Of a stretch of DNA of 32,000 nucleotides, positions 9,566 through 32,000 are shown one piece after another. The notes under the pieces are model-generated. The model worked only from the letters and a program-made list of their open reading frames with translations, was not told where the DNA came from and did no database searches. This DNA comes from Pirellula staleyi DSM 6068. Its GTDB lineage: Bacteria > Planctomycetota > Planctomycetia > Pirellulales > Pirellulaceae. The DNA is taken from contig CP001848.1 in NCBI GenBank assembly GCA_000025185.1, positions 4,410,001-4,442,000 of the forward strand, written 5' to 3'. The position numbers were made by a program, and so were the translations under genes. Position 1 is the stretch's first letter. Each line of letters opens with the position of its first letter.

Positions 9566-9630
9566 GATCTGCTCCGACTTGAAATGGACAACAATAGATC
9601 GAAACGGTGGAGTCGCTTGGCCACCGTTTG

Positions 9631-11079: not shown

Positions 11080-11167
11080 GGCTAGGACTCCTTGGTGATT
11101 GCAGAAGATCGAAAAGGGGGCAGCAGCCCGATTGCTGCCGCCGTGAAAAAGCCAGCACACAGCGTCG

Positions 11168-13280: not shown

Positions 13281-13363
13281 CGGACATCTCCTGAAATATG
13301 AAAAAGTTTGTTGGGAATGCGCATCCACTACGCAGCGGACGCGCTGTAGCAACACAAGTTCCC

Positions 13364-14854
13364 TTAGTTCTGCGACGGATCACGCGAGACTTTGCGGCGA
13401 GCCTTGGTCTCCGCCGCGCACCGGTAGATCCCAGGTTGGTCGGCACTGAGGCAGCGCCCCGATGCCCACGCGCGCAACTTGCTGACCGATTCGGCGGCAG
13501 TGACGGCGACTGGCACGACGTTCTGTGCAGCCTGAATCAGCGGCAGGTCGAGAATTGAGGCCAGACGACAGCAAGCTCGAATCTCAGCGCCTGTCCAACC
13601 TTCGTCAGGAGGGAGTCGTTGGCGAGCATCGAGGTCAAACTGATGGAGGTACAGTCGCCAAATCGCTTGACGCTCCTCCTCACCTGGCAAGTTCAAAAAG
13701 AAGACACCGTCGAAACGCTCAGCTCGCGAGAACTCGGGAGGTAGCCGCGAAATGTCGTTGCACGTGGCAACTAAGTAGACATCACTGGTGTGATCGTTCA
13801 TCCAAGTGAGCAGCGAACCGAACAGCCTTGCCGAGACACCGCTATCACCGCTGCTTCCAACACCCGAGAGACTCTTTTCAATCTCATCTGCAAACAGGAT
13901 GCAGGGGGACATGGCGTCGGCAATCTTGAGCGCCTGCCGAATATTGGATTCCGACTGACCGACGAGGCTCCCCATCAGTGCGCCGATATCGAGCGTAAGT
14001 GTTGGCCTGCCAGTTTCGTGCCCCAACGCTTTGGCAAATGCGCTCTTCCCTGTGCCAGGTACACCCAGCAGCAGCACACCGCGCGGACGCTTGTGAGGCT
14101 GTCGCTGTGAAGTGTGCAGCAACGATCGCTTGCAAAATGCTTTCAGTGCTTGGAGTCCTCCCAAGCTCTGAAAGTCCTGCTCACTTCGATGCAATTGCAG
14201 CAGACCACTTTTCTTTAGCTGTTGCGATTTGAGTTCCCAAAGTGGTTGGGGTTCGATCCTTCCGTGTCGAACAAGTGAGAGGCTAAATGCGTTCTCAGCT
14301 TCGTGTCGCGTAAGGCCTACCGCCGCATCCAGAACGCGATCGAGCCCCGCTCCCGAAGGAAGCTCTCCCTCTTCTGTCGCTACTTCCTGGGCAATCGACC
14401 GTAGCTGCTCGCGTGACGGCAGCTCATGCTCCATCACCACGAATAACTTTTCGAGCTCCACCGGAATCTGAACGATCGGCGCGAGAATCACCAATATGGT
14501 TCGATTCTGTTTACCGGCCACGATCTGACGAGCGAGTGCCTGAACAATCTCTGCGCTCTGCAGGAATCGGTGGAAATTCTGAAGCACGAGAATCGCAGTG
14601 CCATCGGGGGTCGCCAGACCGTTGATTGATCGGATTGCCGCGAGTGGATCTTGGCCACCGCTTTCCGTGGGGGACGATTGTGCTGCGATCACCAATCCCG
14701 ATTCGATGTCCCAAGTGGCCATGTGCCATGCAGGTTGTTGCTGCTCACACATCTGGCGGATTTCAGTGAGAGCGTCGGAATGTTCGTGGGATTCAATCCA
14801 TAGTCCGCTGAAAGCAGCGGCAATGTGTTCTTGCAGTTGGGTAGCTAAGGACAT
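13364..14854 (-). CDS. Classical-clade AAA+ ATPase, Ycf46-like (496 aa)
   Basis: Walker A GVLLLGVPGTGKS (14041-14080), Walker B CILFADEIEK (13873-13902), and an FtsH/Cdc48-type second region of homology. ATG 14854 is preceded by GGGAGGTG. The N-terminal domain MSLATQLQEHIAAAFSGLWIESHEHSDAL resembles Ycf46-type proteins. Confidence 0.88.
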   Translation of the reverse strand: MSLATQLQEHIAAAFSGLWIESHEHSDALTEIRQMCEQQQPAWHMATWDIESGLVIAAQSSPTESGGQDPLAAIRSINGLATPDGTAILVLQNFHRFLQSAEIVQALARQIVAGKQNRTILVILAPIVQIPVELEKLFVVMEHELPSREQLRSIAQEVATEEGELPSGAGLDRVLDAAVGLTRHEAENAFSLSLVRHGRIEPQPLWELKSQQLKKSGLLQLHRSEQDFQSLGGLQALKAFCKRSLLHTSQRQPHKRPRGVLLLGVPGTGKSAFAKALGHETGRPTLTLDIGALMGSLVGQSESNIRQALKIADAMSPCILFADEIEKSLSGVGSSGDSGVSARLFGSLLTWMNDHTSDVYLVATCNDISRLPPEFSRAERFDGVFFLNLPGEEERQAIWRLYLHQFDLDARQRLPPDEGWTGAEIRACCRLASILDLPLIQAAQNVVPVAVTAAESVSKLRAWASGRCLSADQPGIYRCAAETKARRKVSRDPSQN

Positions 14855-15088
14855 AGCACCTCCCTGGAAATTTGAATGTTGCGCGGCATCCAAAACGGTG
14901 AGCCGAAGAAGAAACCTTGCTGCAACGAGCAGTAGGTCTTTAGAAGTCACAGCGCGAAGGCGCATAGCCCTGCCCTGCGATCGAAATGTTTGGTTGGCCA
15001 AGACTGATTAGGAGCGACAGCGAGTATGGCCTGCTGCTGTATGTGATAGGAGTTGAGTTCTGCAGTGATCGCAGACGCGAGAAATCGA

Positions 15089-15286
15089 CTAACCGGCTCG
15101 CCCCTCGTGCGATTGTTGCTGTGTCGATGGAGTGTAGAACTCGCTGGTCAGCTTCTCGGATGTCACAGCTCCTAGCGCCTGCTCTAAGTAGGCCGACGCG
15201 GACTTGCATTCTTGACCGCCAATTCCTTTCGTGTGAATGGAAAGTTGACCACTCGTTGAAATAATCACTTCGATGATCTGGCTCAC
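15089..15286 (-). CDS. DUF2997-like small protein (65 aa)
   Basis: (M)SQIIEVIISTSGQLSIHTKGIGGQECKSASAYLEQALG fits the DUF2997 pattern (I.V.I.pdG.v.i..kG..G..C......le.aLG). The GTG start overlaps the upstream stop (GTGA), and GGGAGG lies upstream. Confidence 0.65.
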   Translation of the reverse strand: MSQIIEVIISTSGQLSIHTKGIGGQECKSASAYLEQALGAVTSEKLTSEFYTPSTQQQSHEGRAG

Positions 15287-15651
15287 GCTGCACCTCCCAC
15301 ATGGATGGTCAGTTTGATCTCGCCGCTGGGAAGTGTTTGCTCGGTGACGGAATGTCCGCGTTTACGAGCCTCGATCTTCGCTTTTTCAGCAGCGTAGGCT
15401 TGCAGAAACTTGTCGAGTTCAGCTTGCTCCCCCCAGCGCCCGCCATAGTTGTCAAAATCAACCCGCCCACTGCTGACATCAACGACAGCCGGATATTTCC
15501 AGCCTGGTAGCTGAACGATCAGTCCTGTTTTCGTCGTAGTAAATAGCTTCGCTGTGCCCTGCGTCGGTGCCGGAATTCTGATCCGCCGACAGGCAGCATC
15601 CACAGCCACTGGATCACGAACTTGCGTTTGAATCTGAACAATGTGTGACAT
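15283..15651 (-). CDS. DUF1257 (Ycf35-like) protein (122 aa)
   Basis: MSHIVQIQTQVRD...LPGWKYPAVVD...DNYGGRWGEQAELDKFLQAYA matches the remembered DUF1257 pattern (MSHFS.I.T.I.D ... GW.YP ... Y.G.WG). AGGAGG 8 nt upstream of the ATG. Confidence 0.72.
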   Translation of the reverse strand: MSHIVQIQTQVRDPVAVDAACRRIRIPAPTQGTAKLFTTTKTGLIVQLPGWKYPAVVDVSSGRVDFDNYGGRWGEQAELDKFLQAYAAEKAKIEARKRGHSVTEQTLPSGEIKLTIHVGGAA

Positions 15652-15990: not shown

Positions 15991-17649
15991 CTACTCTTTG
16001 CGACCGTAGCCACAGCCCGGACAGTGACCTACCGAGTACATGGTGTAGGAGTTTCTTTTGCACTGGGGACACTCCACTTCTCCCCACCCTTTCTTCGCTA
16101 TTCCATTGTCAGCAGGAATTGACTTTTGAGAGTTGTCCTCGACGCTTGCACTACGAAATGTTTTTGTGATCCAAGCACCTGCGGCTGCTAGAACTGCAGG
16201 AACGACAATCCATAGGAGATATCCGAAACGCGAAAGCCGAAATGCCATACCAAGTATGTCTGTTTTTTGGTGTGTACTTTTTGAATTTCTCTCTCGCTGC
16301 GTCTGGAGGGCTAGTGGTGCATTTGGGCCAGTGCTATTGATGGAAGTGTCGAGACCTGTTGAATGCTTGGAAGATTCCTGATCGCCGACAGCGGCTGCGA
16401 CGCCGTAGACCTGGCCGATCAGCTGAGCTGCTCCTGCGGGATTGGCGTCGGCCCAAATCAACTCGGCGGACGAAACTTCGTCGGCGGAAATGGCCATTGA
16501 TAACGCAGCACCATCGGCTCCACGTGTGTTAATACCGATCCAGTGGTATCGTTCACCTTGGCGTAGAAATAATGGTCCACCACTGTTGCCAGGACTGATC
16601 GACGCATCGTGTTGTATCCACGTGGCCCCCGAAGTCGCGCTCTTGGGAGCCCGCAGTGAGCTAATTCTTCCGAACGTCATGCTGTTAGCAAACAAAATGT
16701 CAAGTGGCGTACCGACTGCAACGACTTCGCCACCATTTTTCACTTCGAGTACTTTCATCGCGTTAGAGACTTTCGGGACAACGACGTAGTCCAAACCGGC
16801 AACCAGTCCATTGGGATTCACTTCGATGCACGCGACATCGAGGTTGGGATCGGCCGCAAGGCCGACTCTCTCAGCTCGCCGCTTGGCTCCCGATGGAAAC
16901 TGCACCTCCAGTGCAAACTGTGTGATGTTCGCAGTACGATCGCGCTGTTTAGTTGCTCGACCAGCAACGTCTTCCAAACCAATCACGTGCGCGTTGGTAA
17001 AGAGGCGCAGCTTGCCACCGGTATTTTCAGTAACAACCGACGAGCCTAGTTTGATGAGAGCCTGCGAGAAGTCTCTTTCATTCACAGTTGCTACGATTGC
17101 CGGTGAAGTCTTCTCTAGATCGTCGAATCGGAGTGACGAAACGCCGCCAGAGAAAAGCGACATCGATAGCAGAATCAACGCTAACACTGCCACAGCGCCG
17201 CTGCCGACGAGAGCCAGTATCTTTTGTTCGTCTCGTTTGGTCGTGCCAAGATACGCGAGCCATGTGGCGCATCCCAAGCCTGCGAGACCCATGACTATAA
17301 ACACAAGTCGCCAAACTGATTGCAACAAACAAAAGGTCATCAGCAGCACAACGGTCACTACAGCGACTGCCACCCATCGCTGCAGAAGCCATTGGACTAC
17401 TGGGTGAATTGCGGCTAGAGCTGTATTAGTAGGTGCTTTTGGCCCGCTCTTTTCTGGAATGGTGAGCTCGGCATTGCCCGGTTGGCCCAATTTTTTCATT
17501 AGCTGTTCATAGGCGACTAGCACCTGTTGGTAGGCCCAGCTGTCGCCTCCCGAATCGGGATGATATCGCTTTACTCGCTCGCGATAGGCCGCTTCGATTT
17601 GATCTATGGTGGCGTCGTCGTCGAGGCCGAGAATCTTGTAGGGAGTCAT
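15991..17649 (-). CDS. Membrane protein fusing a J-domain, TM helices, a trypsin-like (S1/DegP-type) serine protease, a further TM helix and a C-terminal zinc ribbon
   Basis: YKILGLDDDATIDQIEAAYRERVKRYHPD (HPD at 17554-17562). Several hydrophobic helices at aa ~85-170. Candidate triad TNAHVI / DVACIEV / GNSGGPLF (~16566-16595). TM helix YLLWIVVPAVLAAAGAWI. C-terminal CPQC...CPGC. Confidence 0.85.
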   Translation of the reverse strand: MTPYKILGLDDDATIDQIEAAYRERVKRYHPDSGGDSWAYQQVLVAYEQLMKKLGQPGNAELTIPEKSGPKAPTNTALAAIHPVVQWLLQRWVAVAVVTVVLLMTFCLLQSVWRLVFIVMGLAGLGCATWLAYLGTTKRDEQKILALVGSGAVAVLALILLSMSLFSGGVSSLRFDDLEKTSPAIVATVNERDFSQALIKLGSSVVTENTGGKLRLFTNAHVIGLEDVAGRATKQRDRTANITQFALEVQFPSGAKRRAERVGLAADPNLDVACIEVNPNGLVAGLDYVVVPKVSNAMKVLEVKNGGEVVAVGTPLDILFANSMTFGRISSLRAPKSATSGATWIQHDASISPGNSGGPLFLRQGERYHWIGINTRGADGAALSMAISADEVSSAELIWADANPAGAAQLIGQVYGVAAAVGDQESSKHSTGLDTSINSTGPNAPLALQTQRERNSKSTHQKTDILGMAFRLSRFGYLLWIVVPAVLAAAGAWITKTFRSASVEDNSQKSIPADNGIAKKGWGEVECPQCKRNSYTMYSVGHCPGCGYGRKE

Positions 17650-19399: not shown

Positions 19400-22300
19400 A
19401 TGGACGTTTTCAAGTTGCGAGAAGATGTGATTCACGACTACGCAGAGTACGTGCGTAGTTTTGTTCGCATTCGTGAGCCACGCCTTCGGCGCTTTGTTGA
19501 CGATAGCCTGACGGACCAAGCGCTTTGGCCGCAGCCGCTGATCCAGATGAATCCCAGCTTTGAATCAGGTGGGTGGATTGACGAACTGGTCGATGCGGGT
19601 GTTCTGCACCAGAAGTCCAAAGATGTCTTTCGAGTTAAGACGGAATCTGACCCGCGTGGGATACCAATGCGACTCCACCGACACCAGGTGGACGCCATCC
19701 GAGAGGCGCAGGCACGCCGCAATTACGTTCTGACCACTGGGACCGGCTCTGGTAAGAGCCTCGCTTACATTATTCCCATCGTCGATCAAGTTCTCCGAAA
19801 CGGTCGCGGCAAGGGTATCCAGGCCATTGTCGTGTATCCGATGAACGCTTTGTGTAACAGCCAGTACGGGGAACTCGAAAAGTTTTTGCGGCTGGGATTC
19901 GGAGAGGGGTCAGAACCCGTCCGCTTCGAGCGTTACACCGGCCAGGAAACACGCGAGAAGCGCGAGGAGATCACTCGAAATCCTCCGGACATCCTGTTGA
20001 CCAATTACGTCATGTTGGAATTGCTGCTAACTCGCCCATTCGAACAAGCACTCGTCAGTTCCGCACGCAATCTCAGCTTTCTCGTCCTCGATGAACTACA
20101 TACCTATCGGGGGCGACAGGGAGCGGATGTCGCATTGCTTGTCCGTCGCGTTCGTGAAGCCTGCCACGCAACATCGCTTCTCTGTGTGGGCACTTCGGCC
20201 ACAATGGCAAGTGGCGGGACTATCAACGAGCAGCGTCTTGAAATTGCCTCGGTCGCTTCGCGATTGTTCGGAACTGAGGTTCTACCCAACTCGATCATCG
20301 GCGAGACCCTGACCCGTGAGACCATCGAGTTGGATTTCAGCGATCCGCAGGTCGTCTCTCGCTTGCAGCTCGATGTTACCCAAAAGGACGGCTTCCCAAC
20401 GAACTACGATGAGTTCATACGGAAACCAATCGCAAGCTGGCTGGAAGACTGCCTCGGCCTGACTCGCGAGAACGGCACGAATCGACTCGTTCGTGCCCGT
20501 CCGCAATCAATTCAGGGGCCAAGTGGTGCCGCCAAACAGCTATCCGATTTGGTGGGAATGACTGTCAAGGATTGCGAAGACGCCATCGAACGCTGGCTGC
20601 TGGCGGGGTGCAATTGTCATCCTCACCCCGAGACCAAACGGCAGCCTTTTGCTTTTCGGCTCCATCAGTTCATCAGTCGCGGCGACGCGGTGTTTGCATC
20701 GTTGGAGGAGAATGACCACCGGCATTTATCGCTCAGCGGACAACAATTCGTACCGAACAGCGATCGTAAGAAAATCCTGCTTCCATTGGCTTTCTGCCGA
20801 GAGTGTGGCGCGGAATACTATTCCGTCTGGAAATCGAATGATGTCGGAACTGGCCGAGTTCATTTCCGGCCCCGTGACCTGAATGACCGGGTCGAAGATC
20901 CCGCCGAAGGCGAGGCGGGCTTTCTCTATCGTGATCCAGAAAAGCCTTGGCTAGACGATCCTGATGAGATTGTACAGCAGCTGCCGGATGATTGGCTGGA
21001 GGAGCATCGCGGTCGGCAACGTGTTCGCAGCAACCTCCGTGATGACGTTCCGCAACCCATAGTGATTGGCCCCGATGGAACCGTCGACGCACAGGGATTG
21101 ATCTATTCTTACACGAGCACGCCGTTTCGCTTTTGTCAAAACTGCGGTGTCTCTTACCGCGTTCGAACTGGAGCTTCTGATTACGGACAACTGGCCACGC
21201 TCGCGAGCGGGGGACGTAGCACTGCCACGACTATCCTCAGCTTGTCGAGTGTCCGCCTGCTGCGGAACGAGCCAACGCTTCAGAACTTTGCACGAAAGCT
21301 CCTCAGTTTCACAGACAATCGGCAGGACGCTTCGCTTCAGGCTGGGCACTTCAACGATTTCGTGGAAGTCAGCTTGCTGAGGTCGGCGCTCTACAAGGCC
21401 GTTGCGGCGGCGGGCGAAGCTGGGATTTCGCACGATGAACTAACGCAACGCGTCTACAAGGCACTGAACCTGCCGTTCGAACTCTTTGCCCGCGAGCCAG
21501 GCGTCCAGTTTGCCCAGCGAGCCGATACGGAACGAGCCTTCCGAAATGTTCTTGGGTATCGCCTCTATCGAGACCAGAAACGCGGATGGCGAGTTACATC
21601 TCCGAATCTCGAACAGTGTGGGTTGCTGCGAATCGAATATCCGTCGTTGATGGAACTTTGCAGGGCAGGAGAGTTCTGGCGTGGAACTCACGCTGCTCTG
21701 ACAACTGCCACTCCGCAAACCCGCGAGCGTATCGCGAAAGCCCTGCTGGACTACCTACGTCGCGAGCTGGCGATTGATGTCGATTATCTGACCACGGAAT
21801 TCTTTGAACGGTTGCAACAGCAAAGTTCGCAGCGACTCCGTGAACCGTGGGCCATCGACGAGCAGGAACGCCCAGAAGTGGCTGCGGCCGTATTCCCACG
21901 TGGCCGGCGCCCCCATGATCGTCAGTTCTACACATATGTGTCGGGGAGGAGCGGATTCGGGATTTTTCTCGGTCGACCAAGTACCCTTCCAGAATTTGAT
22001 CGCTCACAGGGAAAACTGAAGCTCACCGATAAAGATTCAATCATTCAGGATCTGTTCCGGGTACTTGCCAACGCGGGCTACATCGTCCAGATCGTTGAAC
22101 CCACTGATGACGACCTTCCGGGTTACCAGCTCTCCGCATCGGCCATGAATTGGGTCGTTGCCGATGGGACAGTCGCATTTCATGATCCGATCCGTGTTCC
22201 CAATCCTCCGCAGGATGGTGGCCAGACCAACGATTTCTTCGTCAATTTTTACAAGACCGTGGCCAACGATCTCCGTGGACTGGAGGCTCGGGAGCATACG

Positions 22301-24937
22301 GCACAGGTTCCTTATGAAGAACGCGAACGGCGGGAGCAGGACTTTGGATCTGCGAAACTCCCCGTCCTGTATTGCTCACCAACAATGGAACTGGGCGTCG
22401 ACATTCGCCAATTGAATGTCGTCAACATGCGAAATGTCCCACCCACGCCCGCGAACTACGCGCAACGCAGCGGTCGGGCGGGCCGAAGTGGACAACCGGC
22501 CTTCGTCCTGACCTATTGCACGTCAGGTAGCTCTCACGATCAGTATTTCTTCCGTCAGCCCGAGCGGATGGTGGCCGGGGCCGTTAGTCCTCCTCGACTG
22601 GACTTGGCAAACGAAGACCTGGTCAGGGCACACGTTCATGCGATCTGGCTGGCAGAGACCGGTGAATGGCTGGGAAACTCGCTGACGGATCTGTTGGACG
22701 TCGAAGGAGCAAATCCCTCGCTGACGATGCTGCCGAGCAAGGTCGCTGGACTGTCGAAGAAGACCGCCATCGAATCTGCCCGAGCGAAGGCGGAAGCCGT
22801 TCTGCGAACCATTTCTGAAGAACTAGGGACCTCCCCTTGGTTTACCAGCGAGTGGCTGAAGCAGACACTCGATCACTCCCTGCATGCTTTCGAAGATGCC
22901 TGCCAGCGGTGGCGAAGCCTGTTCCGGGCGGCGAAAGATCAGTTCGAACGGCAAAACGTCATCATCGGTGACGTGGCGATGCGATCTCAGTGGGATGAGG
23001 CCCGACGCCTGCGGCGCGAGGCCGAAGCTCAGATCGAATTGCTGACGGATTCGCAGAGCGTGATTCAGTCCGACTTTTACAGCTACCGGTATTTCGCCAG
23101 TGAGGGCTTCCTGCCGGGATATAACTTCCCTCGTTTGCCGCTCTCCGCGTACATCCCTGCACGCCGCAAGACCAAAGGTCAGGACGAATTTCTGTCCCGC
23201 CCGCGTTTCCTCGCCATTTCGGAATTCGGCCCTCGGAGCATCATTTACCACGAAGGCTCTCGCTACATCGTCAACAAAGTGATTCTCCCCATCGCCGATG
23301 GCGATGTGCCCCTCACGGGCTCCGCCAAGCAGTGTGAAGACTGCGGATACATGCGCGAGTTGAATTGGGGTGAAGCCGGGCCGGATCGCTGCGAGAACTG
23401 CCACAGTTACCGTCTCGCCAGAATCGATTCACTGCTTCGCCTCCAGAACGTCGCGACGAAGAGGCGCGATCGAATCAATTCCGATGAAGAAGAGCGACTC
23501 CGGATGGGGTACGAATTGCGAACCGGCCTGCGTTTCAAGGAGGTGGGCGGACTCGCGTATTACCAGGTTGCAGAAGTGAGCGGCTCGTCCTCGTCGATTT
23601 GCACTCTCACTTACGGGGACGCTGCGACGATTTGGCGAATCAACCTGGGTTGGCGACGGCGAGCCAACCGGGATCAGCATGGATTCGTTCTGGATGTCGA
23701 GAAAGGATACTGGCAACGGTCGGATCAACTTCCAGACGATGAAGATCCCGCCGATCCGTTGGGAGCACGAACTCAGCGTGTCGTTCCTTACGTGGAAGAT
23801 CGTCGCAACTGCCTGATTCTCGAACCGGCGACACAAGTCTCAGCCGACGAGATGGCGTCATTGCAAGCCGCCCTGAAGAAGGCCATCCAGACGATCTACC
23901 AACTGGAAGACAATGAACTGGCAACCGAACCCCTTCCGTCGGTCAACGACCGGAAACGGATTCTGTTCTTCGAGTCTGCTGAAGGTGGCGCTGGCGTCTT
24001 GCGTCGAATCCTGGAAAGCGGTGATTCCTTGGCACTGATTGCGGAAGAAGCTCTCCGCCTTTGCCATTTTGACCCCACAACCGGAAATGACCTGCGACGC
24101 GCATCCGGAGCGACGGAAGACTGCGAAGCCGCGTGCTACGACTGCCTCATGAGCTACTCCAATCAACGGGATCATGAACTCCTGGATCGCAAGAAAATCC
24201 GCGGCTTCCTGCTCGACATGACAAAAAGCCGCGTCAAAGCCTCTCCGGGAATCAAAGCATTCAGCGCTCACCTGGAGACGTTGAAGTCGCAGTGCGATAG
24301 CCATCTGGAAAAGTCGTGGCTGGATTACCTGGTGGCTCGTGATTTACGTCTTCCGTCCTGCGCGCAGAAGTTCTACGACCAGTGTGCGACCCGACCCGAC
24401 TTTGTTTATGAGAAGCATCACACGGTGATCTATGTCGATGGACCACCCCACGACTTTTCGGATCGGCAACAGCGTGATCGGGAGAAGACAGCCGCAATGG
24501 AAGACCTTGGTCTGACCGTCTTGCGGTTTCATCACGAGGCTCAGTGGGATGAGATTCTCGCTGCCCACCCGCACATCTTCGGAGTTATACGCGAAGCCAC
24601 GTCTTCTCCTGAACCGGCTGCTGCGTTGACCGGTGATTTATTGGACCTCGAACTGTTCCCCGGCGATTGGCATCCCATCGTCCAAGAGCTTTCTGGTCGT
24701 GACGGCTTGATGATTGAACCCGGTGGTGATGTCGCCACGGGCGGACGGGTCTTGGGGGCTTACGTTCTCGACATCGCGAAAAATGATCAGCGATTGTGGG
24801 TGATCGATGGTCGCGAACAAGCGGGCAACACGCTCTTAGAGGCAATTGCAGCGCAGGGTTATGCAGCACTGTCGATTGATCCTACCGAGTCGTCGGCAAT
24901 GGAGAAGATTCTTTCGAAGCTCGGAGGTCTCGGATGA
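19400..24937 (+). CDS. Giant DExH helicase - DUF1998 (Zn-ribbon) - DUF559/Vsr-like endonuclease fusion (1845 aa); DrmA/DrmB- or DruE-like
   Basis: Motif I TTGTGSGKS (19733-19759), Ia VVYPMNAL, II DELH (20089-20100), III GTSAT, SFTDNRQDAS, VI QRSGRAGRSG (~22461-22490). Cys pairs CEDCGY..CENCH (~23332-23406) and CEAACYDCLMSY (~24121-24160) are typical of DUF1998. PDFVYEKHHTVIYVDGPPHDF...LTVLRFHH (~24390-24537) is typical of DUF559 PD-(D/E)xK nucleases. Confidence 0.9.
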   Translation: MDVFKLREDVIHDYAEYVRSFVRIREPRLRRFVDDSLTDQALWPQPLIQMNPSFESGGWIDELVDAGVLHQKSKDVFRVKTESDPRGIPMRLHRHQVDAIREAQARRNYVLTTGTGSGKSLAYIIPIVDQVLRNGRGKGIQAIVVYPMNALCNSQYGELEKFLRLGFGEGSEPVRFERYTGQETREKREEITRNPPDILLTNYVMLELLLTRPFEQALVSSARNLSFLVLDELHTYRGRQGADVALLVRRVREACHATSLLCVGTSATMASGGTINEQRLEIASVASRLFGTEVLPNSIIGETLTRETIELDFSDPQVVSRLQLDVTQKDGFPTNYDEFIRKPIASWLEDCLGLTRENGTNRLVRARPQSIQGPSGAAKQLSDLVGMTVKDCEDAIERWLLAGCNCHPHPETKRQPFAFRLHQFISRGDAVFASLEENDHRHLSLSGQQFVPNSDRKKILLPLAFCRECGAEYYSVWKSNDVGTGRVHFRPRDLNDRVEDPAEGEAGFLYRDPEKPWLDDPDEIVQQLPDDWLEEHRGRQRVRSNLRDDVPQPIVIGPDGTVDAQGLIYSYTSTPFRFCQNCGVSYRVRTGASDYGQLATLASGGRSTATTILSLSSVRLLRNEPTLQNFARKLLSFTDNRQDASLQAGHFNDFVEVSLLRSALYKAVAAAGEAGISHDELTQRVYKALNLPFELFAREPGVQFAQRADTERAFRNVLGYRLYRDQKRGWRVTSPNLEQCGLLRIEYPSLMELCRAGEFWRGTHAALTTATPQTRERIAKALLDYLRRELAIDVDYLTTEFFERLQQQSSQRLREPWAIDEQERPEVAAAVFPRGRRPHDRQFYTYVSGRSGFGIFLGRPSTLPEFDRSQGKLKLTDKDSIIQDLFRVLANAGYIVQIVEPTDDDLPGYQLSASAMNWVVADGTVAFHDPIRVPNPPQDGGQTNDFFVNFYKTVANDLRGLEAREHTAQVPYEERERREQDFGSAKLPVLYCSPTMELGVDIRQLNVVNMRNVPPTPANYAQRSGRAGRSGQPAFVLTYCTSGSSHDQYFFRQPERMVAGAVSPPRLDLANEDLVRAHVHAIWLAETGEWLGNSLTDLLDVEGANPSLTMLPSKVAGLSKKTAIESARAKAEAVLRTISEELGTSPWFTSEWLKQTLDHSLHAFEDACQRWRSLFRAAKDQFERQNVIIGDVAMRSQWDEARRLRREAEAQIELLTDSQSVIQSDFYSYRYFASEGFLPGYNFPRLPLSAYIPARRKTKGQDEFLSRPRFLAISEFGPRSIIYHEGSRYIVNKVILPIADGDVPLTGSAKQCEDCGYMRELNWGEAGPDRCENCHSYRLARIDSLLRLQNVATKRRDRINSDEEERLRMGYELRTGLRFKEVGGLAYYQVAEVSGSSSSICTLTYGDAATIWRINLGWRRRANRDQHGFVLDVEKGYWQRSDQLPDDEDPADPLGARTQRVVPYVEDRRNCLILEPATQVSADEMASLQAALKKAIQTIYQLEDNELATEPLPSVNDRKRILFFESAEGGAGVLRRILESGDSLALIAEEALRLCHFDPTTGNDLRRASGATEDCEAACYDCLMSYSNQRDHELLDRKKIRGFLLDMTKSRVKASPGIKAFSAHLETLKSQCDSHLEKSWLDYLVARDLRLPSCAQKFYDQCATRPDFVYEKHHTVIYVDGPPHDFSDRQQRDREKTAAMEDLGLTVLRFHHEAQWDEILAAHPHIFGVIREATSSPEPAAALTGDLLDLELFPGDWHPIVQELSGRDGLMIEPGGDVATGGRVLGAYVLDIAKNDQRLWVIDGREQAGNTLLEAIAAQGYAALSIDPTESSAMEKILSKLGGLG

Positions 24938-27024
24938 TCGCCGTGAGCATCGCAAAGACCTTCTCGGCTTCCACAAAGAAGTTGAGCACTCCTGACCGTG
25001 GCCGTGTCCTCGACTTTCTGACGAAGTTCATGGATGACCCGAGCAGCCCAGGACTAAATTTCGAGACGATTCAAGGTGCCAAAGATGGCAACATGAAGTC
25101 GGCTCGAATTACGCAAGACCTGCGCACGATACTTCATCAAAGCAATGGGATGTTGACGCTCCTGTATGCGGGCCACCACGAAGATGCGTACCGCTGGGCC
25201 GAGCGTCGCAGGATGGAGAATCATCCTGTCACCGGAACGCTCCAAATCGTTGAAACTGCCGAGGCGGCGCAGAATGAGGTGAATGTCGCGGACCTGACGT
25301 CCAATTCCACCAGGACTTTCAATGGTTACGACGATGACTACTTGCTGAGCCTTGGCGTCCCCACGGATTGGCTCACCATCATCCGACAGATTCAAAACGA
25401 CGACCAGTTGCTGGCAGTTTGTCAGAAACTTCCCGAGGAAGTTGCCGAAAGGCTGGTAACGCTCTCGACGGGTGAACTGGTCACGCCACCGCCCCCAGTC
25501 CCGGCCACCGCACCTGTTGAACAGAGTCCAGACAACCTGCGACGGTTCTGGGTCGTCCAGGATGCAGCCGATCTGGCCAGCGTACTGGATCGTCCGATCG
25601 AGGACTGGGTTCGTTTTCTGCATCCGTCTCAACGCTTGCTGGTGACCCAGGAATTCAATGGACCTGCCAAAGTCTCTGGTGCTGCCGGTACGGGTAAGAC
25701 CGTCGTCGGAATGCACCGAGCCCGCAGACTGGCTTCGCAAGGCAAACGCGTGCTGCTCACCTCGTTTGTGACGACGCTTTGCCGGAACATCGAACGGAAC
25801 ATCCACATCCTCTGCGCCGGCACTCAAAACGCGTTTGACGGGTCGACGGAGAGCCGAATCACGGTCAGTACCGTCCATAAGCAGGCACTAGCCCTCGCGA
25901 AGGCGACCCATCCGAAGCTCAGGCCATTGGAATCCGACAAGATCGAAGCTCTGGTCAATCGGCATCACAGTCATGGGGGATACCTGTTCGACTCAGGATT
26001 TCTCGTTACTGAGTGGAATGCCGTGGTCGAACCGCAGGGCATCACGACCTGGGAGGAGTATCGGGATGCCGTTCGCACCGGTCGCGGAAAACCGTTGACG
26101 ATCAAACAGCGCAAGGAGTGCTGGAAGGTATTTGCACGCATTTGGGAAGACCTCATGGCCGCCCATGCGTATCCGTGGTCAGCGATTTGTCGCATCGCGC
26201 GCGAAGCCGTGGAATCGGGAGCCGTGGAAAGCCCGTTTGACGCGGTGATTGTCGATGAGGTTCAGGACCTTCAACCGCAGGAGCTTCGGTTCCTGAAAGC
26301 TCTCTCCGCGAAGAATCCGGGTGACTTCATGCTGCTGGGAGACGCCGGACAACGCATCTATCCGGGGGGATTCAGCCTGAAGAAGCTCGGAATCGATGTT
26401 CGCGGACGGTCCCACATCCTGCGAATCAATTACCGCACCACGGAGCAAATCCGCCGATTTGCCGATGGCTTGCTGGCCACCACGTCCAATGACTTCGATG
26501 ACGGTGCGGAAGACCGGCGATCTCAGAGTCTGCTGAATGGCCCCAGACCCACGATCAGAGAGTTTCCCAACGAAGCCGAGCAAGCCAAGTTCGTGCTTGA
26601 TCAGGTTCGCTTGTTGCTCGAACAGGGAATGTCGCCGCGAGAAATCGCTGTTTTCGCCCGGTCGAGCAGTCGGTTGCAATCCATCCGTGACATCCTGACG
26701 GATGCGAAGATGGAGATTGCCCCGCTGAACGACGAAGAAGATTTGTCAGAAGTCAGGGGCATCAACCTCGGCACGATGCACCGGGCCAAGGGGCTGGAGT
26801 TCAAAGTCGTCTTCGTCATCGACTGTAACCAGGGGGTCGTCCCACATGCCTTCACCTTGTCCAAGATGCGGGATCAAGGGGACTACGACGCCGCGTACGA
26901 GCGGGAAAGACAACTTCTGTACGTCGCGATTACGCGTGCGCGTGATGAAGTGTTTGTCACGTCCGTCGGCAAGCCATCTGAGTTCCTGACGAGCCAACCC
27001 GGAAACACGAGAGGCCAACAATGA
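24934..27024 (+). CDS. UvrD/PcrA-like SF1 helicase with an N-terminal RelE/ParE-like module (696 aa)
   Basis: Walker A GAAGTGKT (25678-25701), VIVDEVQDL, INYRTTEQI, GTMHRAKGLEFKVVFV, LLYVAITRARDEVFV. N-terminal ~95 aa ...KSARITQDLRTILHQSNGMLTLLYAGHHEDAYRWA fits the RelE/ParE C-terminal pattern. ATGA overlaps at both ends (24934, 27021). Confidence 0.88.
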   Translation: MIAVSIAKTFSASTKKLSTPDRGRVLDFLTKFMDDPSSPGLNFETIQGAKDGNMKSARITQDLRTILHQSNGMLTLLYAGHHEDAYRWAERRRMENHPVTGTLQIVETAEAAQNEVNVADLTSNSTRTFNGYDDDYLLSLGVPTDWLTIIRQIQNDDQLLAVCQKLPEEVAERLVTLSTGELVTPPPPVPATAPVEQSPDNLRRFWVVQDAADLASVLDRPIEDWVRFLHPSQRLLVTQEFNGPAKVSGAAGTGKTVVGMHRARRLASQGKRVLLTSFVTTLCRNIERNIHILCAGTQNAFDGSTESRITVSTVHKQALALAKATHPKLRPLESDKIEALVNRHHSHGGYLFDSGFLVTEWNAVVEPQGITTWEEYRDAVRTGRGKPLTIKQRKECWKVFARIWEDLMAAHAYPWSAICRIAREAVESGAVESPFDAVIVDEVQDLQPQELRFLKALSAKNPGDFMLLGDAGQRIYPGGFSLKKLGIDVRGRSHILRINYRTTEQIRRFADGLLATTSNDFDDGAEDRRSQSLLNGPRPTIREFPNEAEQAKFVLDQVRLLLEQGMSPREIAVFARSSSRLQSIRDILTDAKMEIAPLNDEEDLSEVRGINLGTMHRAKGLEFKVVFVIDCNQGVVPHAFTLSKMRDQGDYDAAYERERQLLYVAITRARDEVFVTSVGKPSEFLTSQPGNTRGQQ

Positions 27025-29870
27025 GTTTTTCCGTCGGGACATTGGTGAAGGCTCGCGGACGCGAATGGGTCGTCCTGCCCGAGTCACAGGATGATTTTCT
27101 GGTCGTTCGCCCACTCGGGGGAACCGATGCGGAAGTCGCCGGGATCGATACCTATTTGGAGTCGGTCGACCCGGCGAGCTTCGACCTTCCCGACCCGACA
27201 CGGCTGGGTGATTTTCAATCGTGTCGCATGCTGCGGAATGCGATCCGCTTCGGATTCCGTTCCAGTGCCGGGCCGTTTCGATCATTCGGCAAGATTGCCG
27301 TCGAACCGAGACCCTATCAACTCGTGCCACTCTTAATGGCACTGAAGCTCGATCCCGTGCGGCTCCTGATCGCTGACGACGTCGGTATCGGGAAAACCGT
27401 CGAGGCATTGTTGATTGCTCGGGAACTGCTGGATCGGGCCGAGGTCCAGCGAATGTCCGTGTTGTGTCCACCCCACCTCGCAGAACAGTGGCAGGACGAA
27501 CTCCGCGACAAGTTTCACATCGAGGCCGAACTCGTCCTCTCCAGCACGGCGAAACGCCTCGATCGGGTCTGCGGCAACCGATCCGTCTTCGATGTGTTTC
27601 CCTACACGATTGTTTCTCTCGACTACATCAAGAGTGAATCGCGCCGTAACGATTTCATCCGTGCCTGTCCTGAACTGGTGATCGTTGATGAGGCACATAC
27701 CTGTACGTCATCCGCCCAACCAGGGCGGGGTGGCACACGGCAGCAGCGCCACGAGGTCGTGAGGGAGCTTTCCAAGAGTCCGAATCGACACATGCTCCTC
27801 GTCACGGCGACACCCCACTCAGGCAATGAAGAGGGCTTCCGCTCACTGTTGGGGTTACTCAACCCCGAATTCGCGGACCTTCCCACAGACCTCTCTGGTG
27901 ACGAGAACCGCCGACAACGCGAACGCCTCGCCCAGTATTTCGTGCAGCGCCGTCGCGGTGACATCAGGCACTACCTGGAATCGGACACTTCGTTTCCTGA
28001 TCGCCTGGAGCAAGAGCAGACCTACAAACTCGGCACGTCCGAGTACCGTAAGCTGTTCGATCGCCTGTTGAGCTACGCTCGCGAAGTCGTGCAGGAATCG
28101 GAGGGAATGTCCCGCGTACGGCAACGTGTTCGCTGGTGGGCGGCGCTGGCGTTGTTACGGGCACTGGCCAGCAGCCCGGCAGCTGCCGCTGCGACACTGC
28201 GGAGCAAGCTCCAGGCCATCGCGGCGGAATCGCCGGATGAAGTCGATGACATCAGTCGCCCTCTCGTCTTCGACGATGACGCCGAAGACTCCGCAGATGC
28301 CCCGGACATCACGGCGGGTGCGGACCTGGCTGACCTCGAAGAGAACGAATCGGACGCTGCCAAAGAGCGGAAGCGCTTGCTCGACATGGCGCGTGCGGCA
28401 GACAAGCTCGAAGGCGACGGCGACCCCAAACTCGTTCAGATGGTGCCGATCGTCAAAAGGCTCGTCTCCGAGGGCCACCGACCGATCCTGTTCTGTCGTT
28501 TCATCGCCACAGCCGAATACCTCGCCGAGCAGCTACGCCAGCGACTTCCGAAAGGGGTCACGGTGATCGCTGTCACCGGGCAGATCCCACCCTCGGAGCG
28601 TGAGGCCCGCATTCAAGAGATGCGGAATCACGAACAGTACGTCCTGGTCTGTACCGATTGCCTGTCCGAAGGGATCAACCTCCAGCATCTGTTCGACTCG
28701 GTCATCCATTACGACCTGAGCTGGAACCCCACGCGACACGAACAGCGAGAGGGACGTGTCGATCGCTTCGGCCAGCCCAAGCCCGAAGTCAAAGTGCTGA
28801 CCTACTATGGCACCGACAACCAGATCGACGGCGTCGTTCTGGAAGTCCTCATTCGCAAGCACAAGGCGATTCGCAAAGCCCTGGGCGTTTCGGTCCCCGT
28901 GCCGACAACCAGCAATGCTGTGCTGGAGGCGTTGTACGAGGGGTTGCTGCTGCGGCGCAAAGATACTCAGCAGCAGATGTTTCAGTTCCCGGATGATGAC
29001 GAACTGAAGCCGATGACCAATGAGTTCAACGCCGAATGGCAGAACGCGGCGGACCGAGAGAAGAAGAGCCGCTCACTGTTCGCTCAGCACACAATCAAGC
29101 CCGACGAAGTCGCCCACGAAGTGGCCGAGATTCAGTCTGCGATTGGTTCGGCTGCGGATGTCGACGCCTTTGTCACATCGAGCGTCAAGGCGTTTCGAGG
29201 GGTGATCACCCGCCAAGGGGGCCGATGCGACATCGACCTGACAGAAGCTCCCCGCGCCGTGCGGGAATCGATCCGCTCCACACCGAAGTTTGCCGGACGC
29301 TTCCAGCTTCCGGTCTCCAACGATGAGCTGTATCTCTCGCGAACGCACCCTGTGATCGAGGGGCTTGCGACTTACGTGATGGATTCGGCGCTGGATGCCA
29401 CTTCGGTCAGCGACGGACCGGTTCCGGCAGCCCGATGCGGTGTCATTCGGACCAAGGCTGTCAGCACCCGCACGACGTTACTGCTGCTCCGGCTGCGGTA
29501 TCACATCATCACCACGCGCGGTGATGAGTCGACTCCCTTGCTCGCGGAAGACACACTGATCGTCGGCTTTCGAAGTGCCCCCTCCGCTGCGGAATGGTTG
29601 TCGCCCGCTGAGGCGGAATCCCTGCTTCTGGCCACTCCCGATGACAACGTCACCGACGATGTGGCTCGCAACTTCGTTCAGAAGGTGATTGATGAGTTCA
29701 GCCACTTGAGGTCTCATCTCGATGAAGTCGCCGAGGCACACGGGAAGGAACTGCTCGACGCTCACCAGCGTGTGCGGACCGCCTCCCGCCGTGTCGGAGT
29801 GAAATACAGCATCGAGCCACAACTGCCGCCGGACGTTCTGGGGCTGTACGTGTATCTGCCGGTGATGTAA
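27021..29870 (+). CDS. SNF2-family helicase (DrmD-like), 949 aa
   Basis: PRPYQLVPLLMAL, LIADDVGIGKTVEA (27375-27398), VIVDEAHT (27679-27700), LLVTATPHSG, VLVCTDCLSEGINLQ, HYDLSWNPTRHEQREGRVDRFGQ. Confidence 0.9.
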   Translation: MSFSVGTLVKARGREWVVLPESQDDFLVVRPLGGTDAEVAGIDTYLESVDPASFDLPDPTRLGDFQSCRMLRNAIRFGFRSSAGPFRSFGKIAVEPRPYQLVPLLMALKLDPVRLLIADDVGIGKTVEALLIARELLDRAEVQRMSVLCPPHLAEQWQDELRDKFHIEAELVLSSTAKRLDRVCGNRSVFDVFPYTIVSLDYIKSESRRNDFIRACPELVIVDEAHTCTSSAQPGRGGTRQQRHEVVRELSKSPNRHMLLVTATPHSGNEEGFRSLLGLLNPEFADLPTDLSGDENRRQRERLAQYFVQRRRGDIRHYLESDTSFPDRLEQEQTYKLGTSEYRKLFDRLLSYAREVVQESEGMSRVRQRVRWWAALALLRALASSPAAAAATLRSKLQAIAAESPDEVDDISRPLVFDDDAEDSADAPDITAGADLADLEENESDAAKERKRLLDMARAADKLEGDGDPKLVQMVPIVKRLVSEGHRPILFCRFIATAEYLAEQLRQRLPKGVTVIAVTGQIPPSEREARIQEMRNHEQYVLVCTDCLSEGINLQHLFDSVIHYDLSWNPTRHEQREGRVDRFGQPKPEVKVLTYYGTDNQIDGVVLEVLIRKHKAIRKALGVSVPVPTTSNAVLEALYEGLLLRRKDTQQQMFQFPDDDELKPMTNEFNAEWQNAADREKKSRSLFAQHTIKPDEVAHEVAEIQSAIGSAADVDAFVTSSVKAFRGVITRQGGRCDIDLTEAPRAVRESIRSTPKFAGRFQLPVSNDELYLSRTHPVIEGLATYVMDSALDATSVSDGPVPAARCGVIRTKAVSTRTTLLLLRLRYHIITTRGDESTPLLAEDTLIVGFRSAPSAAEWLSPAEAESLLLATPDDNVTDDVARNFVQKVIDEFSHLRSHLDEVAEAHGKELLDAHQRVRTASRRVGVKYSIEPQLPPDVLGLYVYLPVM

Positions 29871-29959: not shown

Positions 29960-32000
29960 GTGCGAACTCGTACCCGCAATCCATTCACGACGGTCTCCAC
30001 GGCTGGGCTGCTGCTCCCGGTCGATCTGCTCGCGCGCATTGTCGACGGCGATCCCAACCTGCCGGGCCTCACCCCCAAGGATTACCACCTGCGCTCTGGC
30101 GAACGGCTCAATGAAGCGGCCAGCCGGGCCTGGAATGAATGCCTGGCCGCCTGGAAGTCGTTTCGCAAGAAGTTCGCCTCTCTTCCAGCCTCGGATACCG
30201 GCACCACGCTCACCCGCGATGAATGGCTGTTGCCGCTGTTTCAGGAACTCGGCTACGGGCGTCTGCAACCCAAGCGAGCCATCGTCATCGATGGCAAGGA
30301 ATACCCGATCAGCCACGGTTGGGAAGATCACGTCCCTATCCACCTGCTGTCAGCTCGCTATTCCATCGACCGCCGCACGCCGGGGGCCGCCGGGGCGGCC
30401 ACCCGTGCCCCGTACAGCCTGCTTCAGGAGCTGCTCAACAGCAGCGGCCAGCATCGCTGGGGATTTGTCACCAACGGTCTCAAGCTCTACCTGCTGCACG
30501 ACAACGCCGCCCTCGCGCGGGCCGCGAATGTCGAATTCGACCTCGAAGCGATGATGGACGGCGAACTCTACGCCGACTTCATGCTGCTGTTCCTGCTCTG
30601 CCATCAATCCCGCGTCGAGATTCAGCCCACGCCGATTGCCAAAGTCACCCTGGATCGGAAGACCGGCAAGGCCAAGAAGGCGAAAGCCACGAGTCAGAAG
30701 AAGCTGGTCACCGATGACGATGCCGAAGCCGGTGAAGGCGACGACTCCGTCGACGCGGAAGCAGAAAAGACCCGGCTTGGTCCGGAGAACTGCTGGCTGG
30801 AGCGCTGGGCCAATCAGGCTGATCAGCAAGGGACCCGCGCCCGCGACAAACTACGAGATGGCGTCGAAGCGGCGATCAAGTCCCTCGGAGCCGGTTTCCT
30901 GACCACCAAGGGGAATCAGGCACTTCGCGAGCGGATGCGGACGGGCGAACTGTCGACCCAGGACTATTACCGCCAGCTTCTCCGCGTCGTCTATCGGCTG
31001 CTGATGCTGCTCGTCGCCGAGGAAAAGAAGACCGAGAACGGGGCCAACCTCTTTCATCCCCCCGGCACTCCGCCCGAGGTCACCGACCGTTACGCCCGCT
31101 TCTACTCGGTCAGCCGCATTCGCACGCTGGCCTACGAGCGGCGCGGCACCGCTCACACTGATCTGTATGAATCGCTCAAGGTCCTGTTCCTCAAGCTGCG
31201 CGAGGGGTACGCCCCGCTGGGCATTCCCGGCATGGGTTCGTTTCTCTTCTCGGACGACTCCACGCCCGATCTGGACGACGCCTTCCTCGCCAATCAGGAC
31301 TTGCTCGATGCCTTCCGGAATCTCTGTTACACGGAAGACACATCCGGGCGCGGCGGCAGCATTCGCCGTCCGGTCGACTTCGGCAGCCTCGGCAGCGATG
31401 AACTCGGCAGCGTGTACGAATCGCTGCTCGAACTGCATCCCAAGATCGACACCGATGAGGGGCCGTTCACGCTCGGCACGGCGTCCGGTAACGAACGCAA
31501 AACGACCGGTAGCTACTACACCCCGACCTCGCTCATCAACTGCCTGCTCGACTCGGCCCTCGATCCGGTCGTTCACGCCGCCATCGATGTTCCTGATCGT
31601 GCCGAGGCCGAACGCAAGCTGCTCAATCTGAAAGTCTGCGATCCGGCGTGCGGCAGCGGACACTTTCTGATCGCAGCCGCTGAGCGAATGGCGATGCACC
31701 TGGCTAGGCTGCGGACCGGCGATGACGAGCCGAACACGCTCGATGTCCAGCACGCCAAACGCGACATCATCGGCCGCTGCATCTACGGCGTCGACATCAA
31801 CCCGATGGCCGTTGAGCTGTGTAAGGTCGCCCTCTGGATGGAAGCGATGGAGCCGGGGAAGCCGTTCTCGTACCTCGAACATCACATCCAGTGCGGCAAC
31901 AGCCTGCTCGGAACCACACCCGCGCTGCTCGCCAAGGGAATCCCCGACGATGCGTTCACGGCGATTGAAGGAGATGTGAAGTCCCGCGTCAGCGAACTGA
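29960..32000 (+). CDS. Eco57I/DrmMI-type N6-adenine DNA methyltransferase, 5' part (continues beyond the window)
   Basis: Open frame (positions = 2 mod 3) from the in-frame stop at 29936-29938 to the window end. Not in the ORF track because it has no stop. First start-type codon is GTG 29960 (MRTRTRNPFTTVSTAGLLLPVDLLARIV...). Motifs GSYYTPTSLINCLLD (~31508), motif I VCDPACGSGHFL (31637-31666), IYGVDINPMAVELCKVALWME, HIQCGNSLLG. Confidence 0.85.
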   Translation, partial: MRTRTRNPFTTVSTAGLLLPVDLLARIVDGDPNLPGLTPKDYHLRSGERLNEAASRAWNECLAAWKSFRKKFASLPASDTGTTLTRDEWLLPLFQELGYGRLQPKRAIVIDGKEYPISHGWEDHVPIHLLSARYSIDRRTPGAAGAATRAPYSLLQELLNSSGQHRWGFVTNGLKLYLLHDNAALARAANVEFDLEAMMDGELYADFMLLFLLCHQSRVEIQPTPIAKVTLDRKTGKAKKAKATSQKKLVTDDDAEAGEGDDSVDAEAEKTRLGPENCWLERWANQADQQGTRARDKLRDGVEAAIKSLGAGFLTTKGNQALRERMRTGELSTQDYYRQLLRVVYRLLMLLVAEEKKTENGANLFHPPGTPPEVTDRYARFYSVSRIRTLAYERRGTAHTDLYESLKVLFLKLREGYAPLGIPGMGSFLFSDDSTPDLDDAFLANQDLLDAFRNLCYTEDTSGRGGSIRRPVDFGSLGSDELGSVYESLLELHPKIDTDEGPFTLGTASGNERKTTGSYYTPTSLINCLLDSALDPVVHAAIDVPDRAEAERKLLNLKVCDPACGSGHFLIAAAERMAMHLARLRTGDDEPNTLDVQHAKRDIIGRCIYGVDINPMAVELCKVALWMEAMEPGKPFSYLEHHIQCGNSLLGTTPALLAKGIPDDAFTAIEGDVKSRVSEL

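Follow-up and report, generated by a model that had tools for sequence, protein, structure and literature searches.

Organisation of the locus

The DNA analysed here is a stretch of 32,000 nucleotides from Pirellula staleyi DSM 6068 (CP001848.1, positions 4,410,001 to 4,442,000; hereafter the window), which carries an operon headed by a large helicase-nuclease gene and very probably representing a variant of the ARMADA Type I anti-phage system. Its genes are named armC-, armD-, armA- and armB-like in Table 1, while related loci and proteins retrieved from other genomes carry L and P numbers. The armC-like gene is one uninterrupted ATG-initiated open reading frame (ORF). An earlier reading of this DNA, made without database searches (the sequence-only reading), had described its product as a single polypeptide of 1845 amino acids (aa) combining a superfamily 2 (SF2) helicase, a DUF1998 zinc module, a DUF559-like endonuclease and an unassigned C-terminal domain. 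This domain anatomy was borne out, with Pfam matches to DEAD (aa 94-270), Helicase_C (aa 947-1031, 2e-13) and MZB/DUF1998 (aa 1488-1583) for the helicase and zinc module. The merging of separate genes by a sequencing frameshift, raised by the same reading, is ruled out, since more than 100 full-length homologues (1835-1860 aa, 55-98% identity) occur in independent assemblies from several phyla, namely Planctomycetota, Cyanobacteriota, Acidobacteriota, Chloroflexota, Armatimonadota and others. Several of these bear the JGI name "YprA (DUF1998 family)/very-short-patch-repair endonuclease".

Table 1. Genes and domains of the window, with coordinates counted from its first nucleotide
Feature	Coordinates	Strand	Description	Evidence
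armC-like gene	19400-24937	+	YprA-family SF2 helicase, Vsr/DUF559 nuclease and C-terminal tail, 1845 aa	Pfam, PADLOC, ORF call
RecA1 lobe	19679-20209	+	Motif I TGTGSGKS (aa 113-120), II DELH (231-234), III TSAT (265-268)	Pfam DEAD 3e-26; residues invariant in alignment
Insert between RecA1 and RecA2	20297-21274	+	aa ~300-625; CxxC pairs C466/C469 and C579/C582	Cys invariant in alignment
RecA2 lobe	21275-22579	+	SFTDNRQD (aa 636-643), Helicase_C (947-1031), QRSGRAGR (1022-1029)	Invariant columns
OB-CON-DUF1998 "canopy"	23072-24169	+	aa ~1225-1590	Pfam MZB 7e-10; Cys invariant in alignment
Vsr/DUF559-type PD-(D/E)xK nuclease	24257-24589	+	aa ~1620-1730	Pfam DUF559, 3HRL profile match, AlphaFold2
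Tail domain	24650-24934	+	aa ~1751-1845	AlphaFold2, Foldseek, conservation, ArmD co-occurrence
armD-like gene	24934-27024	+	696 aa; ~110-aa RelE-like N-terminal domain and UvrD/GajB-like superfamily 1 (SF1) helicase
armA-like gene	27021-29870	+	949 aa; BrxHII/DrmD/RapA-like SNF2 helicase	Pfam SNF2-rel_dom, Helicase_C
armB-like gene, first 680 codons	29960-32000 (continues beyond window end)	+	PglX-like N6-adenine DNA methyltransferase
McrBC-type pair	2926-6767	+	845-aa McrB-like protein and 435-aa McrC	Pfam 1.8e-54 (McrC)
Cas4/DruK-like set	8289-11289	-	PD-(D/E)xK nuclease (274 aa); upstream ORFs of 151 and 552 aa, no family match
ORFs without family assignment	11727-12671, 12717-13355	-
AAA/DUF2997/DUF1257-like trio	13364-15651	-	122-aa DUF1257-like protein (weak, E 0.045), 65-aa DUF2997 protein (1.4e-16), 545-aa AAA ATPase (IetA-like, 1.7e-20)	PADLOC (IetA)
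DnaJ-trypsin protein	15991-17649	-	552 aa; N-terminal DnaJ, trypsin-like protease, C-terminal CxxC...CxxC zinc ribbon

Conservation was read from an alignment of 31 sequences from several phyla. The long insert that had been noticed between the two RecA halves is indeed present after RecA1, and by position it corresponds to the BrxA-like and zinc beta-barrel domains of the ARMADA and Druantia helicases (names from PMC12458937). A second insert, at aa ~660-940 between SFTDNRQD and the start of Helicase_C, splits RecA2 and had been overlooked. The canopy region contains a single inserted zinc module (C1312/C1315/C1331/C1334), a single ZBM insert being a Type I feature (PMC12458937), and ends in the DUF1998 cysteine cluster (C1555, C1575, C1579, C1582).

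For the nuclease domain, Pfam DUF559 matches aa 1667-1714 with 26.1 bits (gathering score 20.6), or with 31.6 bits in a search of the C-terminal 245 aa alone, the match covering profile positions 47-92 of 109. Residues E1637, D1667 (in RPDF), D1680 and H1684 (both in YVDGPPH) are invariant. A profile of the domain matches the solved DUF559 structure 3HRL (E 0.017) with the D...DG..H register kept, and there are weak matches to the Vsr models of NCBIfam (0.009) and Pfam (E 0.13); searches of the PDB with the C-terminal 255 aa, as a single sequence and as a profile, gave chance-level matches only. An AlphaFold2 (AF2) model of aa 1591-1845 has a mean predicted local distance difference test score (pLDDT) of 89.7 and shows two separate domains with a disordered linker between them, pLDDT being ~95 across the nuclease. 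The catalytic residues, which the sequence-only reading had proposed to compare with Vsr and DUF559, are all in place; the nuclease looks intact and is predicted to be active.

The armC-like gene heads a tightly coupled operon of four genes. Its stop codon overlaps the start of the armD-like gene (ATGA), and the armD- and armA-like genes are translationally coupled by the same overlap at 27021. The armD-like product has a Walker A motif (GAAGTGKT, aa 249-256) and DEVQD (aa 441-445), with matches to Pfam UvrD-helicase and UvrD_C and to PADLOC GajB and NERD+UvrD. The residue pattern of its N-terminal domain is kept in nine orthologues; hhalign relates this domain to RelE/YoeB weakly (probability 29%), and PDB searches with it returned chance-level matches only. 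The armA-like product scores 329 bits with the NCBIfam DrmD model, under its cutoff of 610. The armB-like gene has a probable GTG start and stays open to the end of the window; it shows Pfam N6_Mtase (2.4e-9), MmeI_Mtase and Eco57I signatures and the S-adenosylmethionine-binding motif DPACGSGHF (aa 561-569), and its full-length orthologues in L001 and L003 are of 1332-1531 aa. Gene content and order are the same in Lignipirellula cremea (L001) and in a JGI contig (L003), and ~60 related loci also have a YprA gene followed by SNF2 and PglX-like methyltransferase genes in an operon. Scans for tRNA genes and promoters gave nothing decisive. The ORF at 30851-31885 (- strand) and others opposite armB and armC were rejected as antisense shadows in GC-rich DNA.

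Assignment to the ARMADA systems

ARMADA was defined in a preprint by Bell et al. (2025; PMC12458937). Its YprA-family helicase, ArmC, ends in a Vsr nuclease that is predicted to be active, and the partners are a PglX-like methyltransferase and an SNF2 helicase that is BrxHII-like. Type I usually has the order YprA-SNF2-PglX, and Type II the strict order ArmA (SNF2)-ArmB (PglX)-ArmC (YprA)-ArmD, ArmD being a GajB-like helicase with a RelE-like N-terminus (PMC12458937). The 1845-aa protein is assigned, with a probability of about 0.85, to a four-gene variant of ARMADA Type I, armC-armD-armA-armB, as its ArmC-type effector. It is 82% identical over its full length to L. cremea QDU96253.1 (P0007), whose locus (L001) has the same four-gene arrangement. 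Table S1 of the preprint enters this homologue as "ARMADA Type I helicase" (PMC12458937); placement in the Type I clade rests on this entry. Since the preprint covers such proteins and lists this close homologue, the helicase-Vsr fusion is a rediscovery of ARMADA ArmC. What is new is the hybrid four-gene arrangement and a portable C-terminal tail that tracks ArmD.

The partner genes were compared with those of the E. coli EDL933 ARMADA locus, found near leuX. The UvrD-like protein is 33% identical to EDL933 ArmD (E 2e-110, residues 4-687 against 8-703), the N-terminal domain included, the SNF2 protein 28% identical to ArmA (E 2e-44) and the methyltransferase 26% identical to ArmB (E 9e-29). 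The large helicase matches EDL933 ArmC in patches only (23-35%, E 1e-27), and 4 kb of armC, searched by blastn in "distant" mode, had no match in E. coli genomes. With other ARMADA Type I systems the operon shares the helicase clade, as judged from the homologue, a YprA gene in first position, an intact fused Vsr domain, one OB zinc-module insert and SNF2 and PglX genes after the YprA gene. It differs in having an ArmD-like gene between the YprA and SNF2 genes and a tail of ~95 aa after the Vsr domain, and thus departs from the published three-gene composition, which has no GajB-like helicase, in composition and not in clade. This form with ArmD and tail makes up ~1 in 7 of the species-level Type I loci sampled. 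In common with Type II (E. coli NCTC 12900/EDL933) there are the four protein types, the RelE-like::GajB-type ArmD, the overlap of armD with armC and extra ArmC domains after the Vsr domain. However, the Type II order is armA-armB-armC-armD and its helicase belongs to another clade than the close homologue of the window protein, while E. coli ArmC is larger (2113 aa), with EEP-like and second Vsr-like domains; a hidden Markov model (HMM) of the tail did not detect its terminus.

Because the close homologue is listed as Type I, the gene order is that of Type I and the second gene matches EDL933 ArmD, the operon is a hybrid, with a Type I helicase and order and a Type II-like ArmD. The main text of the preprint (PMC12458937), in the parts searched, contains no armC-armD-armA-armB order, no Type I system with ArmD and no Type I domain after Vsr. 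That a hybrid of the two published types exists and is widespread bears on the evolution of these types.

Against 13 of 80 phages the E. coli Type II system confers non-abortive protection, which is abolished by deletion of any of its four genes, by Walker A/B mutations of ArmA and ArmC, by Walker A mutation of ArmD and by mutation of the NPPW motif of ArmB (PMC12458937). In a study of enterohaemorrhagic E. coli, armA-D mutants were phage sensitive and ArmD was the least required component. The sequence-only reading had predicted a self-contained sensing and cleaving enzyme. This functional part does not hold, since the gene heads a conserved operon, its stop codon overlapping the next start, and each of the E. 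coli Type II genes is required; neither the ARMADA identity nor the tracking of ArmD by the tail had been recognised. Two points count against our assignment as an active Type I effector, namely that experimental validation concerns Type II and not Type I, and that the Type I Vsr domain bears the label "active?" in the preprint itself (PMC12458937).

Annotation tools point elsewhere. The best PADLOC models for the large protein are DruE3 (1.6e-101) and DruE1 (9e-92), so that the comparison with DruE and DrmA that had been suggested earlier was a good lead, and one might take the protein for the DruE helicase of a Druantia system. The two groups are closely akin, ARMADA and Druantia helicases forming sister clades with BrxA-like, zinc-barrel and MarR-like inserts in common (PMC12458937). 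The DruE matches are nevertheless partial (e.g., positions 9-681 of 2055), neither the window nor L001 or L003 has DruH, DruA-D or DruM/F/G, and the partners are those of ARMADA, in whose Type I the 82% homologue has been placed. Type III Druantia pairs DruE with DruH, without methyltransferase, SNF2 or UvrD partners, and its large YprA-family helicase-nuclease, although it has the same inserted domains, carries a PLD-type nuclease, while types I and II have an inactivated Vsr domain (PMC12458937); the Vsr residues of the window protein are intact. A Druantia system is accordingly highly improbable. In 2026 preprints, DruE is reported to engage DNA intermediates that contain single-stranded DNA or are forked.

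An even less probable assignment is to class 1 DISARM or to a Dpd system, with a DrmA/DrmB fusion in the former case or DpdJ with DpdE in the latter. PDLC02853, a DpdE model of PADLOC, aligns with the SNF2 protein from end to end (1.4e-262), there are weaker PADLOC matches to DrmD, DrmA and DpdJ, and NCBIfam DISARM_DrmD also responds, but the NCBIfam scores lie under the curated cutoffs (DrmD 329 against 610, DpdE 188 against 500, DpdJ 78 against 800) and the PADLOC DpdE match is to one sub-model only. Class 1 DISARM (DrmA, DrmB, DrmC, DrmD, DrmMI) resembles the operon in its DrmD-like SNF2 protein, its PglX/DrmMI-like methyltransferase and its YprA-type helicase with a DUF1998 module. Here, however, DUF1998 is fused to the helicase, while in DISARM it is separate (DrmB), as is the PLD nuclease (DrmC), and DISARM has no tail or ArmD and its helicases have no fused Vsr domain (PMC12458937). 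No PLD-type DrmC, separate DrmB, DpdA/B/C or 7-deazaguanine synthesis genes were found in the window or the homologous loci. PDLC02853 was probably built from ARMADA-type sequences and would mislabel such loci, which have no dpdA-C nearby, as Dpd. As PADLOC labels the operon DruE and DpdE and NCBIfam gives nothing above its cutoffs, a clear assignment to ARMADA helps annotation.

Pfam MZB is named after MrfA, and homologues are named "YprA" or "Lhr", which would suit an MrfA/YprA-type helicase with a housekeeping role in DNA repair. Such a role is scarcely credible here. The gene shares a defence island with McrBC, an IetA-like ATPase and a Cas4-like nuclease, it has the inserts of the defence branch and an operon with PglX and SNF2 genes, and some homologous loci are flanked by integrases. 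The patchy distribution across phyla, with 55-60% identity between phyla, points to horizontal transfer.

There is also Hhe, reportedly described by Gao et al. in 2020, which is said to be a single protein combining an SF1 helicase with a Vsr-like/MTES_1575 nuclease. It is alike in joining a helicase to a Vsr-family nuclease, and the tail described below was found on one such SF1 helicase (P0133), but Hhe has an SF1 DUF4011 helicase in place of SF2 YprA, is encoded by a single gene and has no methyltransferase. Two further helicase-nuclease fusions lie directly upstream of a tail-less Type I operon in L086 (139-8857), one an Hhe-like DUF4011/AAA_11/AAA_12/MTES_1575/DUF3320 protein of 1580 aa and the other of 1285 aa with a weak MTES_1575 match and DEAD/RecQ helicase domains.

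The C-terminal tail domain

The last ~110 aa of the ArmC-like protein have no Pfam or NCBIfam match, as the description of an unassigned domain had implied. Modelled alone (aa 1741-1845), the tail has a pLDDT of 89.8 and a predicted template modelling score (pTM) of 0.82, with the topology alpha-beta-beta-beta-alpha-beta-alpha. High-probability Foldseek matches in the PDB are all PD-(D/E)xK nucleases, these being Bax1, R2 RLE, PvuRts1I and Hjc, and the tail is confidently modelled as a small PD-(D/E)xK-like fold. Its conserved residues are W1757, E1773, G1775, D1777 (100%), G1786, Y1788 and D1803 (91%), and its alignment has no conserved canonical (D/E)xK lysine or Vsr-type histidine at the catalytic positions. 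The best Foldseek match, Bax1, works bound to a helicase in the archaeal XPB-Bax1 helicase-nuclease complex (PDB 6P4O/6P4F), but the likeness is weak (E 0.015-0.04), is not accompanied by sequence similarity and serves as an analogy only.

As hhalign gave no significant match to the Vsr domain of the same protein or to the C-terminus of E. coli ArmC, neither a duplication of Vsr nor homology to the Type II terminal domain is claimed. The C-termini of E. coli ArmC and of a Thermus BrxL show a similar pattern by eye, without statistical support; the tail HMM did not detect that of BrxL, and a homologue search with the terminal 104 aa of E. coli ArmC returned four near-identical fragments only, which are unusable for a profile.

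Association of the tail with ArmD

Homologues fall into two length classes, tailed proteins having ~1840 aa and tail-less ones ~1730 aa. To score gene content, 80 species-level genome loci were fetched and examined by tblastn, counts being restricted to those Type I loci for which downstream DNA was available. In each of the 8 tailed loci ArmD directly follows armC and precedes SNF2 and PglX, and ArmD is absent from that position in all 52 loci without a tail, so that there are no mixed cases (Fisher p = 3.9e-10). Helicase relatedness does not account for the pairing: the tail-less ArmC of L086 is 71% identical to the window protein and has no ArmD, yet ArmD accompanies tailed ArmCs whose identity is 52-57%. 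Tailed loci are scattered among tail-less ones in a rough neighbour-joining tree, the deep branches of which are short and not robust. In the tail-less Type I locus L040 a UvrD-like gene (22696-24117) lies downstream of the methyltransferase; its product shares 32% identity with the window ArmD in the helicase core and has no detectable RelE-like N-terminal domain.

The tail is not confined to ArmC. With phmmer, 71 matches were obtained among 1.84 billion representative proteins. Apart from fragments of ArmC, they show the tail at or near the C-terminus of McrC (P0131), GmrSD (P0141), NERD+UvrD helicases (P0149, P0187), the SF1 helicase with MTES_1575 (P0133) and another YprA-family helicase (P0179). 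The tailed McrC, GmrSD and NERD-UvrD proteins are encoded directly upstream of ArmD-like genes. In L088 (1-6896) the order is ArmC (Vsr and tail)-small gene-McrB-McrC::tail-ArmD-like, in L089 (2461-12604, a complete cyanobacterial genome) ArmC (tail)-GmrSD::tail-ArmD-like, and in L090 X::tail-NERD-UvrD::tail-ArmD-like. Type IV restriction modules are thus nested between armC and armD in L088 (McrB-McrC) and L089 (GmrSD), each inserted nuclease having a tail of its own. The two tails of a locus are each other's closest relatives in L088 (75% identity, against at most 41% to others) and L090 (59%), though not in L089. "Stand-alone" tail proteins of ~100-110 aa were discounted, since those checked lie on poor or short contigs, L093 being a gapped ArmC fragment and L094 an unresolvable contig of 596 nucleotides. 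Overall, the gene after the tail starts with an ArmD-type N-terminal domain in 14 of the 16 tail-bearing loci with downstream sequence, the window counted.

ArmD-like genes also occur outside ARMADA, so that ArmD seems to be a general accessory, employed by several defence operons. On the Pseudomonas avellanae plasmid NZ_CP091148.1 (L095, 3037-11097) such a gene follows a BPTD_3080-family restriction endonuclease and a methyltransferase, and on the Thermus oshimai plasmid NC_019387.1 (L096, 7451-16149) one lies between BrxL and a RecQ-family helicase of 1716 aa. Both of these RelE::UvrD helicases are annotated as "3'-5' exonuclease".

A possible function of the tail, which we hold at somewhat less than even odds, is the docking of ArmD, probably through the RelE-like N-terminal domain of the latter. 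This domain is the likely contact because its coding segment is always contiguous with that of the tail across the stop/start overlap, an arrangement like that of an antitoxin-toxin pair. A broader and more tentative suggestion is that the tail and the RelE-like domain of ArmD form a portable two-part interface, by which one RelE::UvrD helicase could plug into ArmC, McrC, GmrSD and NERD-UvrD proteins alike. Several observations tell against docking. Its basis is gene neighbourhood only; the two most divergent tails, those of P0179 and P0133 (L091, L092), have no adjoining ArmD-like gene; and ArmD-like genes at 33-37% identity, in E. coli Type II and on the Pseudomonas and Thermus plasmids, have no HMM-detectable tail upstream. 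Moreover, the Foldseek E-values are weak (0.015 or worse), and the acidic residues E1773, D1777 and D1803 are kept, so that the tail could instead be catalytic.

The tail may accordingly be a second nuclease or DNA-binding domain, or else the 5' flank of an armD cassette fused in frame to whatever gene lies upstream, and these alternatives, taken together, are plausible though also clearly short of an even chance. A nuclease would suit the PD-(D/E)xK-like fold with its invariant D1777 and well-conserved E1773 and D1803, and a second "active?" Vsr-like domain ends Type II ArmC (PMC12458937), yet the canonical lysine or Vsr-type histidine is lacking, and the perfect gain and loss of tail and ArmD together, regardless of kinship of the helicase core, is hard to explain for an autonomous nuclease. 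That the duplicated tails of L088 are 75% identical is consistent with a cassette inserted through recombination in tail-coding DNA, as a hitch-hiking flank would have it, and the divergent tails without ArmD speak for a role other than docking; against this, at least four unrelated types of effector keep the tail as a confidently folded domain (pLDDT ~90).

The tail thus offers a testable lead on ArmD, the least understood component. If it recruits ArmD, its deletion or exchange should leave ArmD uncoupled from the effector, and the tails on McrC and GmrSD would make ArmD an accessory motor common to several nuclease-based defences. Were the portable interface real, the composite operons with type IV restriction modules inside ARMADA would amount to an undescribed ARMADA subtype and the tail to a new adaptor domain family.

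Proposed mechanism

A working scheme can be drawn from what was tested in E. coli Type II, taken together with the precedents of DISARM, BREX and Druantia. In this scheme the ArmB methyltransferase would mark host DNA as self, and the OB-CON-DUF1998 canopy of ArmC would load on single-stranded DNA or forks exposed in invader DNA. ArmC might then translocate and cut with its Vsr domain, a step that the SNF2 (ArmA) and UvrD (ArmD) helicases would assist or license, and the expected outcome is a direct, non-abortive defence.

The surrounding defence island

Outside the operon, the window is occupied by a defence island (Table 1). In the McrBC-type pair, the McrB-like protein has an AAA_5 GTPase core and an EVE domain (aa 452-548), and its N-terminus matches PADLOC PD-T4-1 (1e-24) and PDC-S02; for a reader of modified bases placed ahead of McrB, this is unusually elaborate. 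The Cas4/DruK-like nuclease and its two upstream ORFs may constitute another uncharacterised defence operon. Similarly, the trio with the IetA-like ATPase may be either a conserved neighbour or a separate, uncharacterised defence module. A same-looking AAA/DUF2997/122-aa trio lies directly upstream of the L. cremea ARMADA operon (L001, 7444-9550), the two having been compared by Pfam labels and lengths only. The DnaJ-trypsin protein has hydrophobic, possibly membrane-spanning stretches and shows a weak PADLOC match to the protease part of RT-Protease_XI.

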